Assembly (NCBI GenBank): GCA_963717145.1 | Contig: OY970325.1 | Span: 4,096,001 to 4,160,000, forward strand | Source: an uncultured Armatimonadetes bacterium | Lineage (GTDB): Bacteria; Armatimonadota; UBA5829; DTJY01 | Length of the DNA: 64,000 bases | Direction: 5' to 3' | Part shown: piece by piece, positions 2,103 through 31,036 of the stretch | Layout: each line of letters begins with the position of its first letter | Numbering within the stretch: the stretch's first letter is position 1 | Made by a program: the position numbers and the translations under genes | The notes under the pieces: model-generated | What the model saw: the letters and a program-made list of their open reading frames with translations, nothing else | Database searches by the model: none | Told to the model about the DNA's origin: nothing

Positions 2103-3610
2103 GCGAGAAAGTCCGAGTCGAGGGTGTAGACGCCTGTGACGGAGACGATGCTGTCGAGCTGTACCGCGCCGGCCCAGCGGACGGGGACGCCGGTCTCACC
2201 ATCCGAGAGCCGGAAGCCGCCTGGGAGGATCTCGGTCACACGGCCCCACGTCTTCGTCCGGAGGCCGATCATCCTGTTCACTCTCGTGAGCGTCGAGCCG
2301 AGCGGCTCAGGGATGTGCCTCCCCGCGGCATGGAGTGTGCTTGCTGAGGCCGAAAGGATCTTCGCGCCGCCTGGATTCGTGCTCACAGTACCGGTCACGC
2401 TCGCCAGGAGATCGCCGACGTTGTATCCGTTCAGCCCCTGGACCGCGATCGCCGCCGAGCGGTCGGGCGATTGCAGATAGGTCGTGACGCCGTCGCTGCA
2501 GCTAACGACCAGCCGGTTGATCCTGGCCGCGGTTCCATCCGGCAGGAGCTTCGCGATCCCGATCCGATTGAGGTTGTACGGCGAATCGAGCGGATAGCAT
2601 CCGACCCCGGCGCACGGCGAATCGAACCGCAGCCGGAACTCATCGCGGTCGGGCATAAGGAAACGCGGATCGGCGGAGAAGTTGCCCCAGGCCGGCGCCG
2701 CCGGTTTGATCATTCCACCGAGATCGCCGCCCACGTTCCCATACAGGTCGCAGTGGCTGTATGTCAGTGCGGAGGACGTACTCCCGCCGAAGAGACCTCC
2801 TCCGACCGGCGCGGAGTTGAACGCTATGATGCAGTAGTTCAGGATCATCGGCGAGCCGTAGTAGTCATAGCCGCCGCCGCCACTGACCTCGGCGCTGTTG
2901 TAGGCGATCGTGCAGTTCTCGAAATCAGGGCCGGCATGATAGGGTCCGAATACGCCGCCGCCGCTCCCTGTGGCATGATTGCGGACGATGAGGCAGTTTC
3001 GAACGACGGGATAGGAGTGGTACTCGACGTATATGCCCCCGCCGCTCACGGCCTTGTTGTGGATCATCTCGCAGTTGATGATGTCGCCGTAGGAGTACTT
3101 GCCCATGTAGATTCCGCCGCCCCGATTGGTCGCGCGGCAGTTCTCGAACCGGCAGTTGATGATGGTCGCGGTGGTCGTGATCTGGCAGCGAATGCCCCCG
3201 CCGTCGTCCGCCTTGCCGTTCCTGATGGTGATACCTTCGATGGTCACGGAGACTTGTGTTGGGACGTCGATACCTCGTCCCGCACCGCCCGGATCGATGA
3301 TCGTCGGGAACGCCCCGCCCAGACGCTGGCTCAGCGAGGTCTCGTAGCCGAGGAACCCGCCGTACAGCTTGCTGTACTGGGTCATGGTGACCGATTCCCG
3401 GTAGGTCCCGGCTGCGATCCAGTAATCCGAGCCGGTGCCTGTCGCGCTGATGGCCTGCCCGATTCCTGTGTACGCGGTCGCCCACGAGGTCCCATTATGT
3501 ATGGGACCAGGCGCATCGGCATCGACGTAGACGACCGTCGCCCCATGAGCGGCTGAGATGCCCAACAGGCAGAGGAGAAGTGCTATGGTTATCCGTTTGG
3601 ACATGGACAT
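2072..3610 (-). CDS. Secreted right-handed parallel beta-helix protein with a C-terminal beta-rich (OB-like) region
   Basis: Signal peptide; YVDADA..GTSWATAY start; repeated N.A..GGGI motifs. Confidence 0.8.
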   Translation of the reverse strand: MSMSKRITIALLLCLLGISAAHGATVVYVDADAPGPIHNGTSWATAYTGIGQAISATGTGSDYWIAAGTYRESVTMTQYSKLYGGFLGYETSLSQRLGGAFPTIIDPGGAGRGIDVPTQVSVTIEGITIRNGKADDGGGIRCQITTTATIINCRFENCRATNRGGGIYMGKYSYGDIINCEMIHNKAVSGGGIYVEYHSYPVVRNCLIVRNHATGSGGGVFGPYHAGPDFENCTIAYNSAEVSGGGGYDYYGSPMILNYCIIAFNSAPVGGGLFGGSTSSALTYSHCDLYGNVGGDLGGMIKPAAPAWGNFSADPRFLMPDRDEFRLRFDSPCAGVGCYPLDSPYNLNRIGIAKLLPDGTAARINRLVVSCSDGVTTYLQSPDRSAAIAVQGLNGYNVGDLLASVTGTVSTNPGGAKILSASASTLHAAGRHIPEPLGSTLTRVNRMIGLRTKTWGRVTEILPGGFRLSDGETGVPVRWAGAVQLDSIVSVTGVYTLDSDFLASECGGLTPL

Positions 3611-4425: not shown

Positions 4426-5082
4426 CTAGCCGTTTCTACGTCTCAGCACGAATCCCGCGAGTCCGGTGATGCCGGACACCAGGGCGAGCAAGCTGCTCGG
4501 CTCGGGGACGACTTCGATGTAGGAAGTCGAGCCGGCCGGGCCTTCGACCGCTCCAACGTTTCCACCGTTCATGTTCCATACTACGTTGAAGATCAGGCCG
4601 ACGTTATTCCAGCCTGCATCGATGCCGGACTGGAGATATGAAGTCACGTCGTGTCTCTGCCAGCCTTCGCCGACGCCATTGAGAAAGGCTATCTCGGATC
4701 CGCCGGCTTGGCTGAATCCTGCTGCTACCGCCGAGCCGGGATCTCCGCCATAGAACTGGAGCGAGGTCCCGTTGATCCCGTAGGAATAGAAGTTGAAAGA
4801 AGCGCTGTTCGGACTTAGTGTCTTGCCTGCCAGGGAGGAGATGTTGACGATCACCATTCCTCTCCCTGATTCTCTGTTCTCGCCGTTATGCCAGAACGAG
4901 ACGTTGGTACCGCCGGTGTCCGCCCAGGAGCCATACCACCCGTACCAACTGCGGCCGGCATACCCGTCACCCTCGCCGGTTGGATAGAGCCTCAGCGGCA
5001 CCGGGCTGGCGAATGCCGAGGTGGCGCAGAGCACAAGAGCCATTGCGATCAGGATGATAGCAAACTTCCGAGTTTTCTTCAT
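4426..5082 (-). CDS. PEP-CTERM sorting-domain protein
   Basis: Signal peptide from ATG 5082; C-terminal VPEPSSLLAL...LRRR. Confidence 0.92.
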   Translation of the reverse strand: MKKTRKFAIILIAMALVLCATSAFASPVPLRLYPTGEGDGYAGRSWYGWYGSWADTGGTNVSFWHNGENRESGRGMVIVNISSLAGKTLSPNSASFNFYSYGINGTSLQFYGGDPGSAVAAGFSQAGGSEIAFLNGVGEGWQRHDVTSYLQSGIDAGWNNVGLIFNVVWNMNGGNVGAVEGPAGSTSYIEVVPEPSSLLALVSGITGLAGFVLRRRNG

Positions 5083-5143
5083 GTACAGACCATCCTTTCC
5101 ATGTTTGGAGGACGCAAGACACGAGGCGTCCGAAAACAAACCC

Positions 5144-5160
5144 TGCAATATCCATGCCAA
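5144..5160 (-). promoter_or_regulatory. Sigma54 -24/-12 promoter of the PEP-CTERM gene
   Basis: Minus strand TTGGCATGGATATTGCA, about 60 nt upstream of the ATG. Confidence 0.75.
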
Positions 5161-14227: not shown

Positions 14228-14350
14228 GAGAATGGCCTGGTTCCCGAACTGTCACCGTGAGGTGCGCGTGTCCGCCGTTGGCGGAATAGGGGCCGGGCCG
14301 AACCTTTCCGGGGGGCCGGCTTCAGGCATGAGGCCGGCCTTATTCATTTT
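14228..14350 (+). ncRNA. Candidate stand-alone structured RNA (three-way junction plus terminator)
   Basis: Extended -10 TGGTACAAT (14213-14221); stem 14234-14244/14289-14299 enclosing hairpins 14253-14264 and 14271-14285; terminator 14314-14350. Confidence 0.5.
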
Positions 14351-26586: not shown

Positions 26587-27197
26587 GTGGGAAACACGAA
26601 TGACACGAACGGACGAATAGGCTCAGCTTGCCTGTATATAAGGGACACGCACCTACTTCCAACTCAGCGTCGGAACCGTCGCCGGTTGGGCGAACAGGCC
26701 GAGCCTACGCCATGCCTCCCAGTCCTGGAAGCGCTGACCGGTCGCATCCTCCCTATTCGCGAACACCTCGCGTGAGCGTTAGTGATGACGCGGCGAGCGT
26801 ATCCGTCGCGGAGTCTTGGGCAGTTGAAGGGAGTTGCTCGTGGAGATGAAGCACGGGAGGAGGTAAGCGTGCCACGGATTCAGGTTCGCGCGGGCGTTCG
26901 GTGCGGTGTATGAGTTCGTGGAGGGGGCTGAGTGTGATAATAGCGGGTCAGACTGTTGACCATTCTGTAAATACCGTGCCTGTCCCAGTTTCCCAGTTTC
27001 CTCCGCTTGGCGTTCTTGGCGACTTGGCGGTTCCAACTCCATGCGTCGCAGAAACCCCCTCGGCCCAGAGGCCGGTCCCCCTTCGTAAGGGGGACATCAT
27101 GTGCTCCCCCCATCAACCATGAACCATCAACCATTGCCCAACTCCGATGTGGTATACTGTTCACTGATTACCGTTCACCGTTCACCGGAGGTAACCC

Positions 27198-28178
27198 ATG
27201 ACACGCATACGCCCGCGACGGCTGCGGGTCTCCGAGGCCATGAGGCGCATGGTCTGCGAGACCGAGCTGTCCGTCAACGATTTGATCTACCCGATGTTCG
27301 TCATGCCCGGCGAAGGATCCCGTGTGGAGATCCCATCGATGCCGGGGTGCTTTCGCATGTCGGTCGACGAGCTGTGCAAGGAAGCCGCCGAGGTCCAGGC
27401 GCTCGGCATCCCGGGGATATTGCTATTCGGGCTGCCGGAGTCGAAAGACGAGATCGGCTCGGGCGCATATGACCCCGAGGGGATCGTCCAGCAGGCGGTC
27501 CGTGCGATCAAGTCGTCCGTGAAAGACCTGCTCGTCATCACCGACGTGTGCATGTGCGAATACACGTCCCACGGCCACTGCGGGATCATCTCCGGCGAGA
27601 AGGTCCTGAACGACCGCACGGTCATGCTGCTCGCGAAGACCGCCCTCTCCCATGCGCAGGCGGGCGCGGATATCGTCGCCCCGTCCGACATGATGGACCT
27701 CCGCATCGGGGCGATCCGGGATGCGCTCGATGAGCATGGCTTCGAGGACACGGCGATCATGGCATACTCGGCGAAGTATTCGTCTGCGTTCTACGGCCCG
27801 TTCCGCGAGGCGGCGGAGTGCGCGCCTCAGTTCGGCGACCGGAAGGCATACCAGATGGACCCGGCGAATTCGCGCGAGGCCCTCAAGGAGGTCGCGCTCG
27901 ACATCGAGGAGGGCGCTGACATCGTGATGGTGAAGCCGGCGCTCGCGTACATGGACATCATCCGCCAGGTGAAGGACTCGACCGACATCCCCGTGGCGGC
28001 GTTCAACGTCTCTGGCGAGTACTCGATGGTGAAGGCGGCGGCGCAGAACGGCTGGATCGACGAACAGAAGGTCGTCTCGGAGATACTGACATCCCTCAAG
28101 CGCGCGGGCGCGGACATCATCCTGACCTACCACGCGATGGATGTGGCGGAGGGGATGGGGCGAATGGTTGATGGTTGA
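27198..28178 (+). CDS. hemB: Porphobilinogen synthase
   Basis: [36 protein letters not shown]. Confidence 0.97.
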
Positions 28179-28232
28179 TGGGGAATGGCTGATGGGGGAA
28201 CGGTTCATGGTTGATGGCTGACGGGGACCGGA

Positions 28233-28341
28233 ACCCGCTAGTCCTGAGTGCGCCTCTGGGCGTGTATCGAAGGACGGCCTACGGAGTGCCACAAGGCCGT
28301 CCTTCGATACACGCCCAGAGGCGCACTCAGGACTAGCGGGT
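28233..28341. repeat. Long palindrome (CTAGTCCTGAGT family); short copy at 58146-58189
   Basis: acccgctagtcctgagtgcgcctctgggcgtgtatcgaagga ... exact inverse. Confidence 0.85.
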
Positions 28342-28376
28342 CCTGTTGTGCAGGGCTCAACCCACGAAGTTCCCAC

Positions 28377-28417
28377 AAAGAAAGAAGGCCGGCGATCACT
28401 CGATCGCCGGCCTTTCG
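28377..28417. terminator. Bidirectional intrinsic terminator
   Basis: aaggccggcgatc-actc-gatcgccggcctt; longer U-tract on the minus strand. Confidence 0.8.
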
Positions 28418-28745
28418 GCTAGGTACGAAGTTGGCTCAATGAAAGCATCTCGCGGTTGTCTCGCCGCTGACGAATGCTAACCCCAGACAGTCCACCGCCA
28501 GCGCCCGCAAGGCCTGGGGAACTGCGCACCGATCGGTCTGGTAAGCGCATGATCCGCCGAATCTCTCTGTGGCGGATCAGCGTGGGCAAGGGAGTCGCCC
28601 GTCGCCGATCTTCCGGCATATGTTCCAATCGCTGGTCGCGGTGAAATCAATGAGAAGGGATACAGAAGCGGTACGCTGGTCAAAGAGGATCTAAGGCACA
28701 GCCACGCATCTCTTTCTCCTACTTCGACGGTCTGGCGCCGTCTTC
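28377..28745 (-). ncRNA. Candidate ~365-nt structured RNA with a 9-codon 5' ORF (28680-28709, MRGCALDPL)
   Basis: Own promoter and terminator; no credible long ORF; many hairpins with minus-strand G-U pairs; 5' CGAAGT pairs with 3' ACTTCG. Confidence 0.55.
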
Positions 28746-28751
28746 TATAAC

Positions 28752-28780
28752 AATATAATGCGGATACCGAATTCCGTCAA
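28752..28780 (-). promoter_or_regulatory. Sigma70-type promoter driving the 28377-28745 transcript
   Basis: TTGACG-N17-TATATT on the minus strand. Confidence 0.65.
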
Positions 28781-28933
28781 CCGGCAAAAATACCTGTTTT
28801 GCGAAAAAGATGCGGGACGCGTCGGAAGATGTCCCCCTTACGAAGGGGGACCGGCCTCTGGGCCGAGGGGGTATGTCTGCATGCAAACCTCCCCCGGCCT
28901 GCTGGCCGGCCCCTCCTTCGTAAGGAGGGGCGC

Positions 28934-29737
28934 TTACAGGATCGGGGTCTGCGAAGGGATTCTGTCGCGGAAGAGAGTGATCGCCTCAAAGCCCGCCGAC
29001 CGGATCACGTCCAGTCCCCGCTCCAGACCGAAGCCCAGGTGCTCCCCGAGATGCGCGTCTGAGCCGATGGTGAGCAACTCCCCGCCGAACTCGCGGTACA
29101 GCTTGAGGGTCTCCAGCGCGGGGAACGGCTCCCCGCACGGCTGACGATATCCCGAGGTGTTCACCTCCAGCGCGATTCCCCGCTCGATCATCGTCCGCAG
29201 GATTGCCTCGATCTGCTCGCGGTACGGCTCGATGCTGAACGGGCCGAGGTACTTCACCCCGAATCGCTTGACGAGGTCGAAGTGCGCCAGGACGTCGAAG
29301 TTGGCGCACTCGGCCGCCTGCAGGACCTCATCGAAGTACCTGCGATAGAGGGCGACCCAATCGGTCGTACCGGTCTGAAAGTCGACCGAGACGACCGCAT
29401 CGCCGACCCAGTGGATGCCGGCGGTGAGGAAATCGAACTTCTCGTCGCCGAGGACCCGCTCGATCTCGCGGGGATAGAGGTGCGGCTCACCGAGTTCCGC
29501 GCCCTTGAGAATGCGGAGACGGTCGCCGAAATGCTCCCGGCAGTCATCGACATCGCGGGCGAAGTCGGCCGCATCGAAGAGGCCATAGCACTGGTCGTCC
29601 GGATTGCTGTCGAGGTGGTCGGTGAACGCGATCTCAGTCAGGCCGCGCTCGATGGCGAGGCGGCACATCTCCTCGACGGAGACGTGTCCGTCGCCGGAAT
29701 GGGTCGAATGAACGTGGTAGTCGATCAGGTGTGTCAC
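28934..29737 (-). CDS. PHP-domain histidinol-phosphate phosphatase (HisK/HisJ family)
   Basis: DYHVHSTHS, FTDH, LAHFD, IGSDAH. Confidence 0.88.
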   Translation of the reverse strand: MTHLIDYHVHSTHSGDGHVSVEEMCRLAIERGLTEIAFTDHLDSNPDDQCYGLFDAADFARDVDDCREHFGDRLRILKGAELGEPHLYPREIERVLGDEKFDFLTAGIHWVGDAVVSVDFQTGTTDWVALYRRYFDEVLQAAECANFDVLAHFDLVKRFGVKYLGPFSIEPYREQIEAILRTMIERGIALEVNTSGYRQPCGEPFPALETLKLYREFGGELLTIGSDAHLGEHLGFGLERGLDVIRSAGFEAITLFRDRIPSQTPIL

Positions 29738-29778
29738 CCCCTAATGTTATCCGGCCCGGGCATACTCTCCTTGGGCAC

Positions 29779-29848
29779 AAGAAAAATGGCCCGCAGGGTG
29801 TTCGCCTGCGAGCCAAGTAAGTAAGGAGAAAAAGATGTCTTTTTCAAC
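29779..29848 (-). ncRNA. Sigma54-dependent sRNA candidate B
   Basis: Starts about 12 nt after the -12 box; seed ACATCTTTTTCTCCTTACTTAC, then terminator TGGCTCGCAGG..CCTGCGGGCCA-TTTTT. Confidence 0.7.
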
Positions 29849-29858
29849 TGGGGATATC

Positions 29859-29874
29859 TGCAAGAATCGTGCCA
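29859..29874 (-). promoter_or_regulatory. Sigma54 promoter
   Basis: TGGCACGATTCTTGCA, consensus -24/-12. Confidence 0.85.
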
Positions 29875-29975
29875 ATCCCGGCAATAATGCCTGCCATGTA
29901 GCATATTTCACGAACTTATCACATTCAGCACATGCGGCGTTCACGAACAAACGCCTATCAGGCGGTTTGGAGGGC

Positions 29976-30044
29976 AAAAAAAGAGAAGCCTGCGAGATTT
30001 TCCCGCAGGCTCGTAAGGAAGGAGAAATAGATGTTGTTTCCAGG
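29976..30044 (-). ncRNA. Sigma54-dependent sRNA candidate A
   Basis: Seed ACATCTATTTCTCCTTCCTTAC, then terminator AGCCTGCGGGA-AAA-TCTCGCAGGCT and U-tract. Confidence 0.7.
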
Positions 30045-30054
30045 TAGTATTACC

Positions 30055-30070
30055 TGCAAGAATCGTGCCA
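30055..30070 (-). promoter_or_regulatory. Sigma54 promoter
   Basis: TGGCACGATTCTTGCA, identical to 29859-29874. Confidence 0.85.
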
Positions 30071-30163
30071 ATTCGTGCAACAAGTCGGGGAAAGGTCAAA
30101 AAGAGTTGGAGGCAGGGGGCAATCATTGAGGCACACGTGATCGATGATGCGTTGGCAGTGCAC

Positions 30164-31036
30164 TCAAGAATCCGAGGTTCCGGCAACTGCAGAGCTCGTC
30201 ATAGTACCGGTTGATATGACGTATGGCTGGTATACATGCGTCGTCCCATCTAGAGCCAGAAAGCATCCTCTGCTGCAGACAAGAAGCGCTCGAGTGTGGA
30301 AGTATATACATCCACTTTCTGCGAAATTCTCGGCGGTCAGATATCGATTGTGCATCACTCTGTTTCGGAGAGTCCGAAGTTCGTTCAGTTTGTAATAAGC
30401 GCCCTTTCGAATAAAGACATTCCGGAACACATCTGCCCAGCAAGTCGCCTCATCTATGATCTTGGGCAAGTCTGAGAAGTCAGCGTAGAATATGTCGTGC
30501 ATCCTCTCAAAATCATGTTCAAGATCGTTCTCCTCATCAGACTTCCGATTGCCACACCTGCGCTGGATGGCAAGTAGATCTGGCTCAGCGCTGACCGTCC
30601 ACCAGTCCATGCCGTAGCATCTTGCCATAGATGCGGCGATGCGACGCCGAAGTTTGTTCTCCAGATCATGCAGGTCTGCATATGTCTTGATGGTCCGTTG
30701 GCGGCCTATCCCATCGTAGCTCAACATCCACCATGTGAAATAGGCAGACGCGGCGTATTCAATGCGAGTCTTGGCCTCTTGCATCTCCGTCTCTCCAGCT
30801 TCCTCGCCACCCTCCAGCATGATCTGGAACACGTTTGGCGATCCTCCGCTCCATCTAATCCTAACGAACACACCTTGTGCCAACCCGGATACCTCGCTCT
30901 GAGCTTGGAGGCCTGGCTGTAACTCGAAGTCTGTCAGTTCCATTAGCTCCACCATATCGGTACTGGCCTGAGCATCTGGTGAGTTATTGAGAGCGAGGTA
31001 CTCCACTTGGTTACTTGCGAGAGCAGGTGTGGTCAT
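30164..31036 (-). CDS. Protein with a C-terminal Swt1-like HEPN domain
   Basis: LENKLRRRI...G.DWW...YADFSDL..II...W..VF...LRNRVMH (Rx4H). Confidence 0.7.
   Translation of the reverse strand: MTTPALASNQVEYLALNNSPDAQASTDMVELMELTDFELQPGLQAQSEVSGLAQGVFVRIRWSGGSPNVFQIMLEGGEEAGETEMQEAKTRIEYAASAYFTWWMLSYDGIGRQRTIKTYADLHDLENKLRRRIAASMARCYGMDWWTVSAEPDLLAIQRRCGNRKSDEENDLEHDFERMHDIFYADFSDLPKIIDEATCWADVFRNVFIRKGAYYKLNELRTLRNRVMHNRYLTAENFAESGCIYFHTRALLVCSRGCFLALDGTTHVYQPYVISTGTMTSSAVAGTSDS

Follow-up and report, generated by a model that had tools for sequence, protein, structure and literature searches.

The window analysed here is a 64,000-nt stretch of the genome of an uncultured Armatimonadetes bacterium (G000; 5.37 Mb, 60.6% G+C; contig OY970325.1, positions 4,096,001 to 4,160,000), and the element in question is a short site at 28707-28724 to which the seeds of two neighbouring putative small RNAs (sRNAs), A and B, are complementary. 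The plus strand of the site reads CATCTCTTTCTCCTACTT and the minus strand, from 28724 to 28707, reads AAGUAGGAGAAAGAGAUG. On the minus strand the site is the ribosome-binding site (RBS) and start codon of a tiny leader-like open reading frame (ORF), carried by an independently transcribed RNA of ~370 nt that we call the orphan RNA. The initial annotation had read this strand as the Shine-Dalgarno (SD) sequence and start of the peptide MRGCALDPL, which the sequence bears out, and had proposed that the three RNAs form a local circuit. Four units run co-directionally along the minus strand, namely sRNA A, sRNA B, a PHP-domain gene (29737-28934, minus strand; PF02811, E 1e-24) and the orphan unit, on which hemB (ALAD, E 4e-154) converges from the opposite side. 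The sRNAs are ~1.1-1.3 kb from the site with the PHP gene in between, in agreement with the spacing of about 1 kb and the PHP gene originally described. Coordinates are positions in the window unless marked as genome. Two relatives recur below: G001, a genome of the same family but another genus, and L063, a metagenome contig from a close relative. The features of the locus are as follows.

30055-30070, minus strand: sigma-54-type promoter of sRNA A, TGGCACGATTCTTGCA, from a regular-expression scan of the genome (genome 4126070); its 16-mer is the same as that at sRNA B.
29975-30044, minus strand: sRNA A, ~70 nt, with seed CAUCUAUUUCUCCUUCC at 30033-30017 and terminator at 30012-29986; inferred start 12 nt past the -12 GC.
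29859-29874, minus strand: sigma-54-type promoter of sRNA B, from the same scan (genome 4125874).
29780-29848, minus strand: sRNA B, ~69 nt, with seed CAUCUUUUUCUCCUUACUU at 29837-29819 and terminator at 29815-29787; placed by promoter and terminator.
28752-28800, minus strand: promoter of the orphan RNA, with upstream block AAAACAGGTATTTTTGCCGGTTGAC (28800-28776), -35 TTGACG and -10 TATATT (28757-28752); 10 of 12 consensus matches.
28375-28746, minus strand: orphan RNA, ~370 nt, non-coding except for the mini-ORF; homologues in G001 and L063, convergent with hemB.
28726-28742, minus strand: 5' hairpin GACGGCGCCAGACCGUC, with one compensatory pair (A-U to G-C) in G001.
28707-28724, minus strand: SD (GGAG), spacer and AUG, complementary to the sRNA seeds by sequence, duplex and cofold predictions.
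28680-28709, minus strand: mini-ORF of nine codons and a stop (MRGCALDPL; stop 28682-28680), from ORF comparison.
28385-28414, minus strand: intrinsic terminator of the orphan RNA, a 13-pair stem followed by a U-run, with one compensatory pair in G001.

The minus-strand transcript that had been postulated to start near 28745 is supported by this layout. The sole sigma-70-like promoter within 28000-30400 is TTGACG-17-TATATT (28780-28752, minus strand), whose position places the transcript start near 28745 and which, together with the terminator, defines an RNA of ~370 nt; both promoter and terminator are kept in G001 and L063, and metatranscriptome contigs lie within 28425-28735. Read from its 5' end the RNA consists of the hairpin, the SD and AUG, the nine-codon ORF and then ~290 nt without a shared frame, and no frame is open across all three orphan homologues. 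A search of Rfam 15 with the orphan RNA gave no family match, the only hits having E>2 and all falling over the terminator (asX1, ctRNA_pGA1, SorY, suhB, ar35, P17), and no paralogous 5' untranslated region was found in the genome. The space between the hemB stop and the orphan terminator contains a perfect palindrome (28233-28341) whose 48-nt arms enclose a 13-nt loop; it produces strong but spurious 'miRNA' hits in Rfam near the site, which we discarded. A perfect 45-nt inverted repeat (27054-27098 and 28828-28872, with 1,729 nt between the arms) brackets hemB and the orphan RNA; since a similar unit occurs elsewhere (e.g. near genome 1609726), it is probably a dispersed repeat. Short CCATCAACCAT-type repeats (27107-27135 and 28163-28224) stand inverted on either side of hemB, and a run similar to these follows the orphan RNA in L063 and in a metagenomic 3' fragment (L064).

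The orphan RNA itself is narrowly distributed. Using blastn we found it in two of 41 relatives and in two of 401 genomes of the phylum, G001 being the only genome besides this one, with a third hit (G306) that covers the terminator only; a pattern scan of metagenomes returned one new full homologue (L063), the 3' fragment and the G001 copy (L065). In G001 the RNA sits between PHP and hemB, and in L063 it is convergent with hemB on a contig that stops before any PHP gene is visible. In the upstream block, -35 included, G001 is identical at 24 of 25 nt, with the -10 kept too, and L063 has a similar block; AGGAGAAAG[A/G]GAUG, spacer included, is conserved in all three homologues, and a 3' block of 165 nt shows 76% identity. 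The homologues thus keep a strong start that opens a very short ORF, and the peptide differs between genera (MHSCALDPL in L063, an unrelated eight-codon MTYRRAAY in G001). The alifold covariation term for the RNA is +0.57, from three sequences only, which are too few for covariation. The promoter block recurs in other genomes: AAAACAGGTA..TTTTGCC.GTTGAC occurs three times on one contig of G032 (C151; L058, L060, L062), with genes of signal-peptide-like start following at least two of the copies, and a search with the block found similar ones preceding secreted-protein genes in G032 and G036 and no additional orphan RNAs. The recurring AAAACAGGTA block may serve a shared regulator as its operator.

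RNA contigs were available from one metatranscriptome run, in which a relative 96-97% identical is represented at a depth of ~3.7-3.9 and from which strand, ends and level are not derivable. Two contigs (178 and 159 nt, six differences each) cover 28425-28602 and 28577-28735, and in the 1.8 kb compared the orphan unit alone is covered, which fits a discrete, stable orphan RNA. The sRNA A/B region (29780-30044), the PHP gene and hemB are without contigs in this single low-depth run, which is uninformative about them.

By contrast with the orphan RNA (2 of 41 relatives), the sRNA seed is found class-wide. sRNAs A and B are two of five predicted copies in this genome of a class-spanning family that, judged from its promoters, is sigma-54-dependent. 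The motif TGGCA[CT]-N5-TTGC[AT] has 35 matches in the genome (regular-expression scan), five of which are the promoters of putative sRNAs bearing the seed CAUCU(N)UUUCUCC: A, B, those at genome 3764492 and genome 3764905, and a longer one at genome 4341232, the siblings being named A, B, C1, C2 and D. Members are ~65-115 nt long, and the motif lies 26 nt before the inferred sRNA start. The exposed seed, (A)ACAUCU(N)UUUCUCCUU, reverse-complements to (AA)GGAGAAAAAGAUGUU, in which a strong SD is followed by an A/G-rich spacer and AUG. Fold predictions leave the seed mostly unpaired in A; in B they close a small 5' hairpin by pairing its CUUUUUC portion with GAAAAAG, and D displays it in a hairpin loop. 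A strict promoter-plus-seed pattern finds a match in 18 of the 53 genomes of the Armatimonadota class and, read backwards, in none; across a collection of 185,579 species it matches 16 stretches, all titled Armatimonadota or uncultured bacterium. Alignment of 25 distinct loci (of 26, one being dropped for an N) shows that the seed and the UUCC following it form a conserved core that extends beyond the searched pattern, with a terminator in most. Additional members have divergent promoters (L094 in G005, L096 in G034, L097 in G026 and L102 in G044) and fall outside the strict sigma-54 pattern, so that 18 of 53 is a lower bound.

With their own promoter and terminator and a conserved seed complementary to RBSs, these putative RNAs have the hallmarks of trans-acting anti-SD sRNAs. 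Neither an Rfam search of the whole window nor a permissive scan of 28100-30300 gave a family at gathering score over the sRNAs, Qrr (RF00378) included, and the best matches over them are at chance level (ncr982, E 1.7; trpB, E 2.4; suhB, E 0.14). A literature search for either RNA returned no paper, the hits for Armatimonadetes and sRNA being unrelated by title and abstract start. Without an Rfam match, the sRNA family and the orphan RNA are new. A second pair of sigma-54-driven sRNA-like units, at genome 1523043 (plus strand) and genome 3591340 (minus strand), carries terminators and a different U/C-rich stretch, AAGAGUUUUCUUCUUC...

RNAduplex reproduces the pairing first noted between the site and sRNA B (18 bp with one G-U and one bulge, here a bulged U) at -24.0 kcal/mol, so the underlying sequence observation is correct, and the poorer pairing described for sRNA A comes out at -22.2. 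No other site in the window had been seen to match this far; among the top 45 sites for sRNA B no non-sRNA site does better, the next lying at ~4125 (-23.5). Across the genome, an RNAduplex ranking with a 7-mer prefilter places the site at ~34-36 of 6,847 windows for B, at ~31-32 of 9,262 for D and outside the top 45 for A. Raw energies are noisy, G-rich coding sites with long interior loops outranking real RBSs, and we therefore added the ungapped run and the free-energy difference from cofolding (ddG). The comparison set was a crude start list of 13,281 sites (each an ATG or GTG preceded by an SD and opening an ORF of 80 codons or more), which includes false internal starts. Given below for each sRNA are the sites with equal or better duplex energy, those with an ungapped run at least as long, the cofold ddG of the orphan site, the random starts that do as well, and how many of the top 24 starts (gene starts with a run of at least 15 pairs) do better.

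sRNA A: energy as good at 280 of 13,281 sites; run as long at 3,303; ddG -8.0 kcal/mol; 46 of 250 random starts as good; 21 of 24 top starts better.
sRNA B: energy as good at 15 of 13,281 sites; run as long at 29; ddG -6.9 kcal/mol; 9 of 250 random starts as good; 17 of 24 top starts better.
sRNA C1: energy as good at 2,545 of 13,281 sites; run as long at 1,455; ddG -7.4 kcal/mol; 86 of 250 random starts as good; 22 of 24 top starts better.
sRNA C2: energy as good at 1,544 of 13,281 sites; run as long at 1,448.
sRNA D: energy as good at 53 of 13,281 sites; run as long at 18; ddG -13.3 kcal/mol; 36 of 250 random starts as good; 15 of 24 top starts better.

From these ranks the site beats a typical RBS for B and D only. 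The initial annotation had foreseen that pairing no better than the RBS background would undo its proposal; this is what we find for A, C1 and C2, for which the site is unremarkable, and B and D partly escape it. The 13-mer GGAGAAAGAGAUG of the orphan site recurs unchanged at gene starts at genome 163311, 98801, 1934929 and 4056971, and at the first three of these it is the RBS of PEP-CTERM genes.

The longest contiguous seed matches fall at the starts of signal-peptide proteins. When ten top starts were picked by eye, six passed the PEP-CTERM model TIGR02595 and five the PEP-CTERM model PF07589. The genome has 63 PEP-CTERM matches over cut-off, 51 of them in the crude start list, and a run of at least 15 pairs occurs at 8 of these 51 ORFs versus 15 of 7,061 others (Fisher 2e-12, inflated by paralogues). 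A sigma-54 motif lies upstream of 12 of the 63 PEP-CTERM ORFs; in these 12 the run never reaches 13 pairs, and the nine PEP-CTERM ORFs in which it is 14 or longer are all without the motif (p 0.013, again inflated by paralogues). A search for an equivalog of the PEP-CTERM regulator PrsR (TIGR02915) gave three NtrC-like matches of 377-407 bits, all under the cut-off of 502.6. Among other genomes of the class we checked 15 of 52 perfect 14-mer sites, those retrieved as loci that did not coincide with a strict-pattern sRNA. About eight of these proved to be sRNA genes, with divergent promoters, read in antisense; of the ~7 remaining, one is a clear PEP-CTERM gene and three more encode a signal-peptide or membrane-like N-terminus. 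The window also holds a PEP-CTERM gene with its own sigma-54 motif (~4435-5159, minus strand; motif at genome 4101159, PEP-CTERM match at genome 4100435-4100509).

Conservation of the locus, which the initial annotation had made a test of its circuit, stands for one half and fails for the other: the minus-strand promoter, hairpin, SD-AUG block and terminator are kept in G001 and L063, and linkage to the sRNAs is not kept in G001. There, neither the sigma-54 motif nor the seed is present in 8 kb around the orphan RNA, and the sRNAs are on other contigs (C35 and C76). The seeds resident in G001 can still pair with its target, GGAGAAAGGGAUG, but only via G-U. The compensatory changes in relatives that had been looked to for support are likewise missing, with none between target and seeds when G001 is compared with this genome; for G001 against sibling D, target and sRNA have changed at different pairs, each from Watson-Crick to G-U and uncompensated. 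Both genomes with the orphan RNA also carry sRNAs; counted more widely, it occurs in 2 of 401 genomes of the phylum and the sRNAs in 18 of 53 of the class, a distribution that does not amount to co-occurrence or co-evolution. One further complementarity came to light: GUUGGCUCAA in the terminator hairpin of sRNA D (D = genome 4341232-4341375) is a perfect complement of the invariant UUGAGCCAAC of the orphan RNA (28433-28442). This 10-nt match has a rough chance estimate of 0.04 per comparison and sits in the D terminator stem, and GUUGGCUCAA is invariant in G006 too, where blastn gave no orphan RNA; the match is probably due to chance.

We propose that a generic, class-conserved anti-RBS seed here meets a common strong RBS, the orphan RNA being at most one of many targets, and we put the probability of this reading at roughly 0.55. 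The orphan RNA carries a common type of RBS and therefore pairs with the sRNA seed. The seed, being class-wide where the orphan RNA is narrow, is generic and older than the orphan RNA, and we infer that the proximity of the orphan RNA to sRNAs A and B is incidental rather than the sign of a dedicated three-RNA circuit. The local circuit first suggested does not hold up, given an sRNA family that is class-wide, an orphan RNA confined to two genomes of the phylum, a linkage that is not kept and many gene starts that pair as well or better. As we picture it, an NtrC-type activator would fire the sigma-54 promoters and the sRNAs would be made; they would then cover the SD and AUG of every mRNA with a AGGAGAAAnAGAUG-type site, blocking translation initiation. 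Such sites would in this genome be concentrated on PEP-CTERM genes without a sigma-54 promoter, and another set of PEP-CTERM genes would have the sigma-54 promoter in common with the sRNAs.

Several observations weigh against this proposal. By raw duplex energy with sRNA B the site is among the top ~0.1-0.2% of SD-bearing starts, and it is still in the top 3.6% after accessibility (9 of 250); sRNA D matches it perfectly over 13 nt. A conserved SD-spacer-AUG over a non-conserved peptide is the pattern to be expected of a binding site or decoy, and equally of a leader ORF in which translation, not the product, matters. The PEP-CTERM enrichment comes from non-independent paralogues and a crude start list in one genome, and it was not replicated in other class genomes among the 15 of 52 14-mer sites checked. 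Expression of the sRNAs is predicted, and the RNA contigs give no support for it.

Were repression of some PEP-CTERM genes by the sigma-54 sRNAs borne out, these RNAs would add a post-transcriptional arm to a widespread, poorly understood system of surface-protein sorting, and would offer a testable model for switching sets of surface proteins. The locus also carries a more general caution: an anti-RBS seed will always find a neighbouring 'target', and genome rank, accessibility and conservation are needed before a local circuit is called.

A first alternative is that the orphan RNA is a dedicated target, in which the sRNAs block translation of the mini-ORF and the loss of ribosomes alters the fate of the RNA, through Rho or RNase access or through refolding of the 3' domain, so that the activity of the orphan RNA would be governed by its sRNA neighbours. 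That a strong SD and AUG with a short ORF is present in all three homologues when the peptide is not kept speaks for this, as do the inclusion of both SD and AUG in the pairing and the co-directional arrangement of the four units. However, the sRNAs are unlinked to the orphan RNA in G001, the pairing is ordinary for three of the five siblings and, after accessibility, weaker than at most top gene starts, and the 3' domain has neither an Rfam match nor a known role. We consider a dedicated target unlikely.

Alternatively, the orphan RNA could be a sponge or decoy, a sigma-70-driven RBS mimic that titrates the sigma-54 sRNAs and sets a threshold for repression. It is a stand-alone RNA with a strong promoter, a terminator and no conserved coding capacity, its mimic block is kept in three of three homologues over a peptide that differs between genera, and top-ranked PEP-CTERM genes have exactly this block as their RBS; the relative's RNA contigs are limited to the orphan unit in the 1.8 kb compared, and sRNAs are present in both orphan-bearing genomes. 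Yet there is a single site, a second purine-rich stretch, ACAGAGAGAU, lying in a hairpin that L063 has lost; the predicted full-length fold leaves the site mostly paired (mean unpaired probability 0.28 vs 0.36 for the whole RNA) with a modest net binding energy; most sRNA-bearing genomes have no orphan RNA; no covariation is seen; and the RNA run is too shallow for its contigs to yield strand or level. The odds that the orphan RNA acts as a sponge seem to us slim, and they are if anything slimmer for the fuller version in which two sigma factors, acting through the RBS mimic, jointly set which PEP-CTERM proteins are displayed. Were that fuller version true, no RNA-level switch would have been described before it for the PEP-CTERM/exosortase system, nor any riboregulatory circuit in Armatimonadota. 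The conserved SD-spacer-AUG over an unconserved peptide is the main support for the dedicated-target and sponge readings alike.

The unit might instead be the decayed start of a PEP-CTERM or secreted-protein gene, a remnant 5' end with no present function. Its RBS is identical to that of PEP-CTERM genes, and secreted-protein genes of G032 have the promoter block AAAACAGGTA...TTGAC in front of them; against decay, the promoter, hairpin, 165-nt 3' block and terminator have been kept across two genera in the same place, the indels are not in threes and leave no shared frame, no paralogous 5' untranslated region exists in the genome, and RNA contigs cover the unit. We regard this origin as very improbable.

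It is harder still to credit a third sRNA sibling on the plus strand, where the complementarity would be inverted homology, an outcome that the initial annotation had listed as fatal to its circuit. The plus strand does contain CATCTCTTTCTCC, the same as the D seed, followed by a 5-bp hairpin, but no TGGCAC-N5-TTGC lies upstream and the sole GG/GC-like stretch is mis-spaced, abutting the seed, whereas in true siblings the seed begins ~21-22 nt past the 16-nt promoter motif; a plus-strand terminator was not found, conservation in G001 and L063 tracks the minus-strand promoter, hairpin and terminator, and the RNA contigs span 310 nt versus the 65 nt of a sibling.

Type I toxins are small, hydrophobic, conserved peptides, usually ~20-60 residues long. 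The type I toxin-antitoxin logic first entertained, with a toxic mini-ORF peptide silenced by the sRNAs, draws on a small ORF with a strong RBS near RNAs able to cover that RBS, and we reject it as scarcely credible: the ORF has nine codons (eight in G001), no hydrophobic stretch and a sequence unrelated between genera, complementarity is confined to the RBS, and the sRNAs are a multi-copy, class-wide family with many equal or better matches rather than a cognate, specific antisense antitoxin.

Among known systems, Qrr1-5 are sigma-54/LuxO-dependent sibling sRNAs with a conserved single-stranded seed that acts on several mRNAs. As described in two accounts of the Vibrio RNAs (PMC3730234; bioRxiv 10.1101/2021.07.01.450815), they resemble the family here in that several sRNA genes are nearly identical and every one has a sigma-54 promoter and a terminator to itself. 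The family here differs in its phylum, in having no sequence or structure match to Qrr or any other Rfam entry, in a seed that is plain anti-SD/anti-AUG and not the Qrr seed, and in the activators at hand, three NtrC-like genes of which none passes the PrsR cut-off. LhrC sRNAs are induced by a two-component system, and many of their targets are envelope or surface proteins. Passages on LhrC1-5 of Listeria monocytogenes (PMC5880928; PMC13350326) describe, as we find here, multi-copy siblings with pyrimidine-rich motifs that cover the SD of mRNAs. LhrC has UCCC loop motifs and sigma-A promoters, whereas the RNAs here carry a sigma-54 promoter and use a single linear seed that reaches over the AUG as well, and the two show no homology.

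For the orphan RNA, the trap mRNA of ChiX/chb is one example of a sponge or decoy. Others, in the passages that describe them, are RosA, for RoxS/FsrA of Bacillus subtilis (PMC8216469), and a Caulobacter sponge (PMC12559287), each, like the orphan RNA, a separate transcript with a copy of an sRNA target site. Unlike these sponges, the orphan RNA is a candidate with a single predicted, partly structured site and is not conserved with the sRNA family. Sigma-54 motifs have been found before 99 of 167 proteobacterial PEP-CTERM genes, the PrsK/PrsR regulon, in a paper whose passages mentioning RNA do not concern sRNAs (Haft et al., 2006; PMC1569441). The PEP-CTERM ORFs here share such motifs (12 of 63), whereas that regulon was described for proteobacteria and this genome has no PrsR equivalog (best match 407 vs 502.6 bits). 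Relative to that regulon, the predicted sRNA arm is new.

Elsewhere in the window, a DUF3800-IX RNA at 14234-14303 (plus strand) is the sole Rfam match over gathering score (58 bits, E 5.5e-10).

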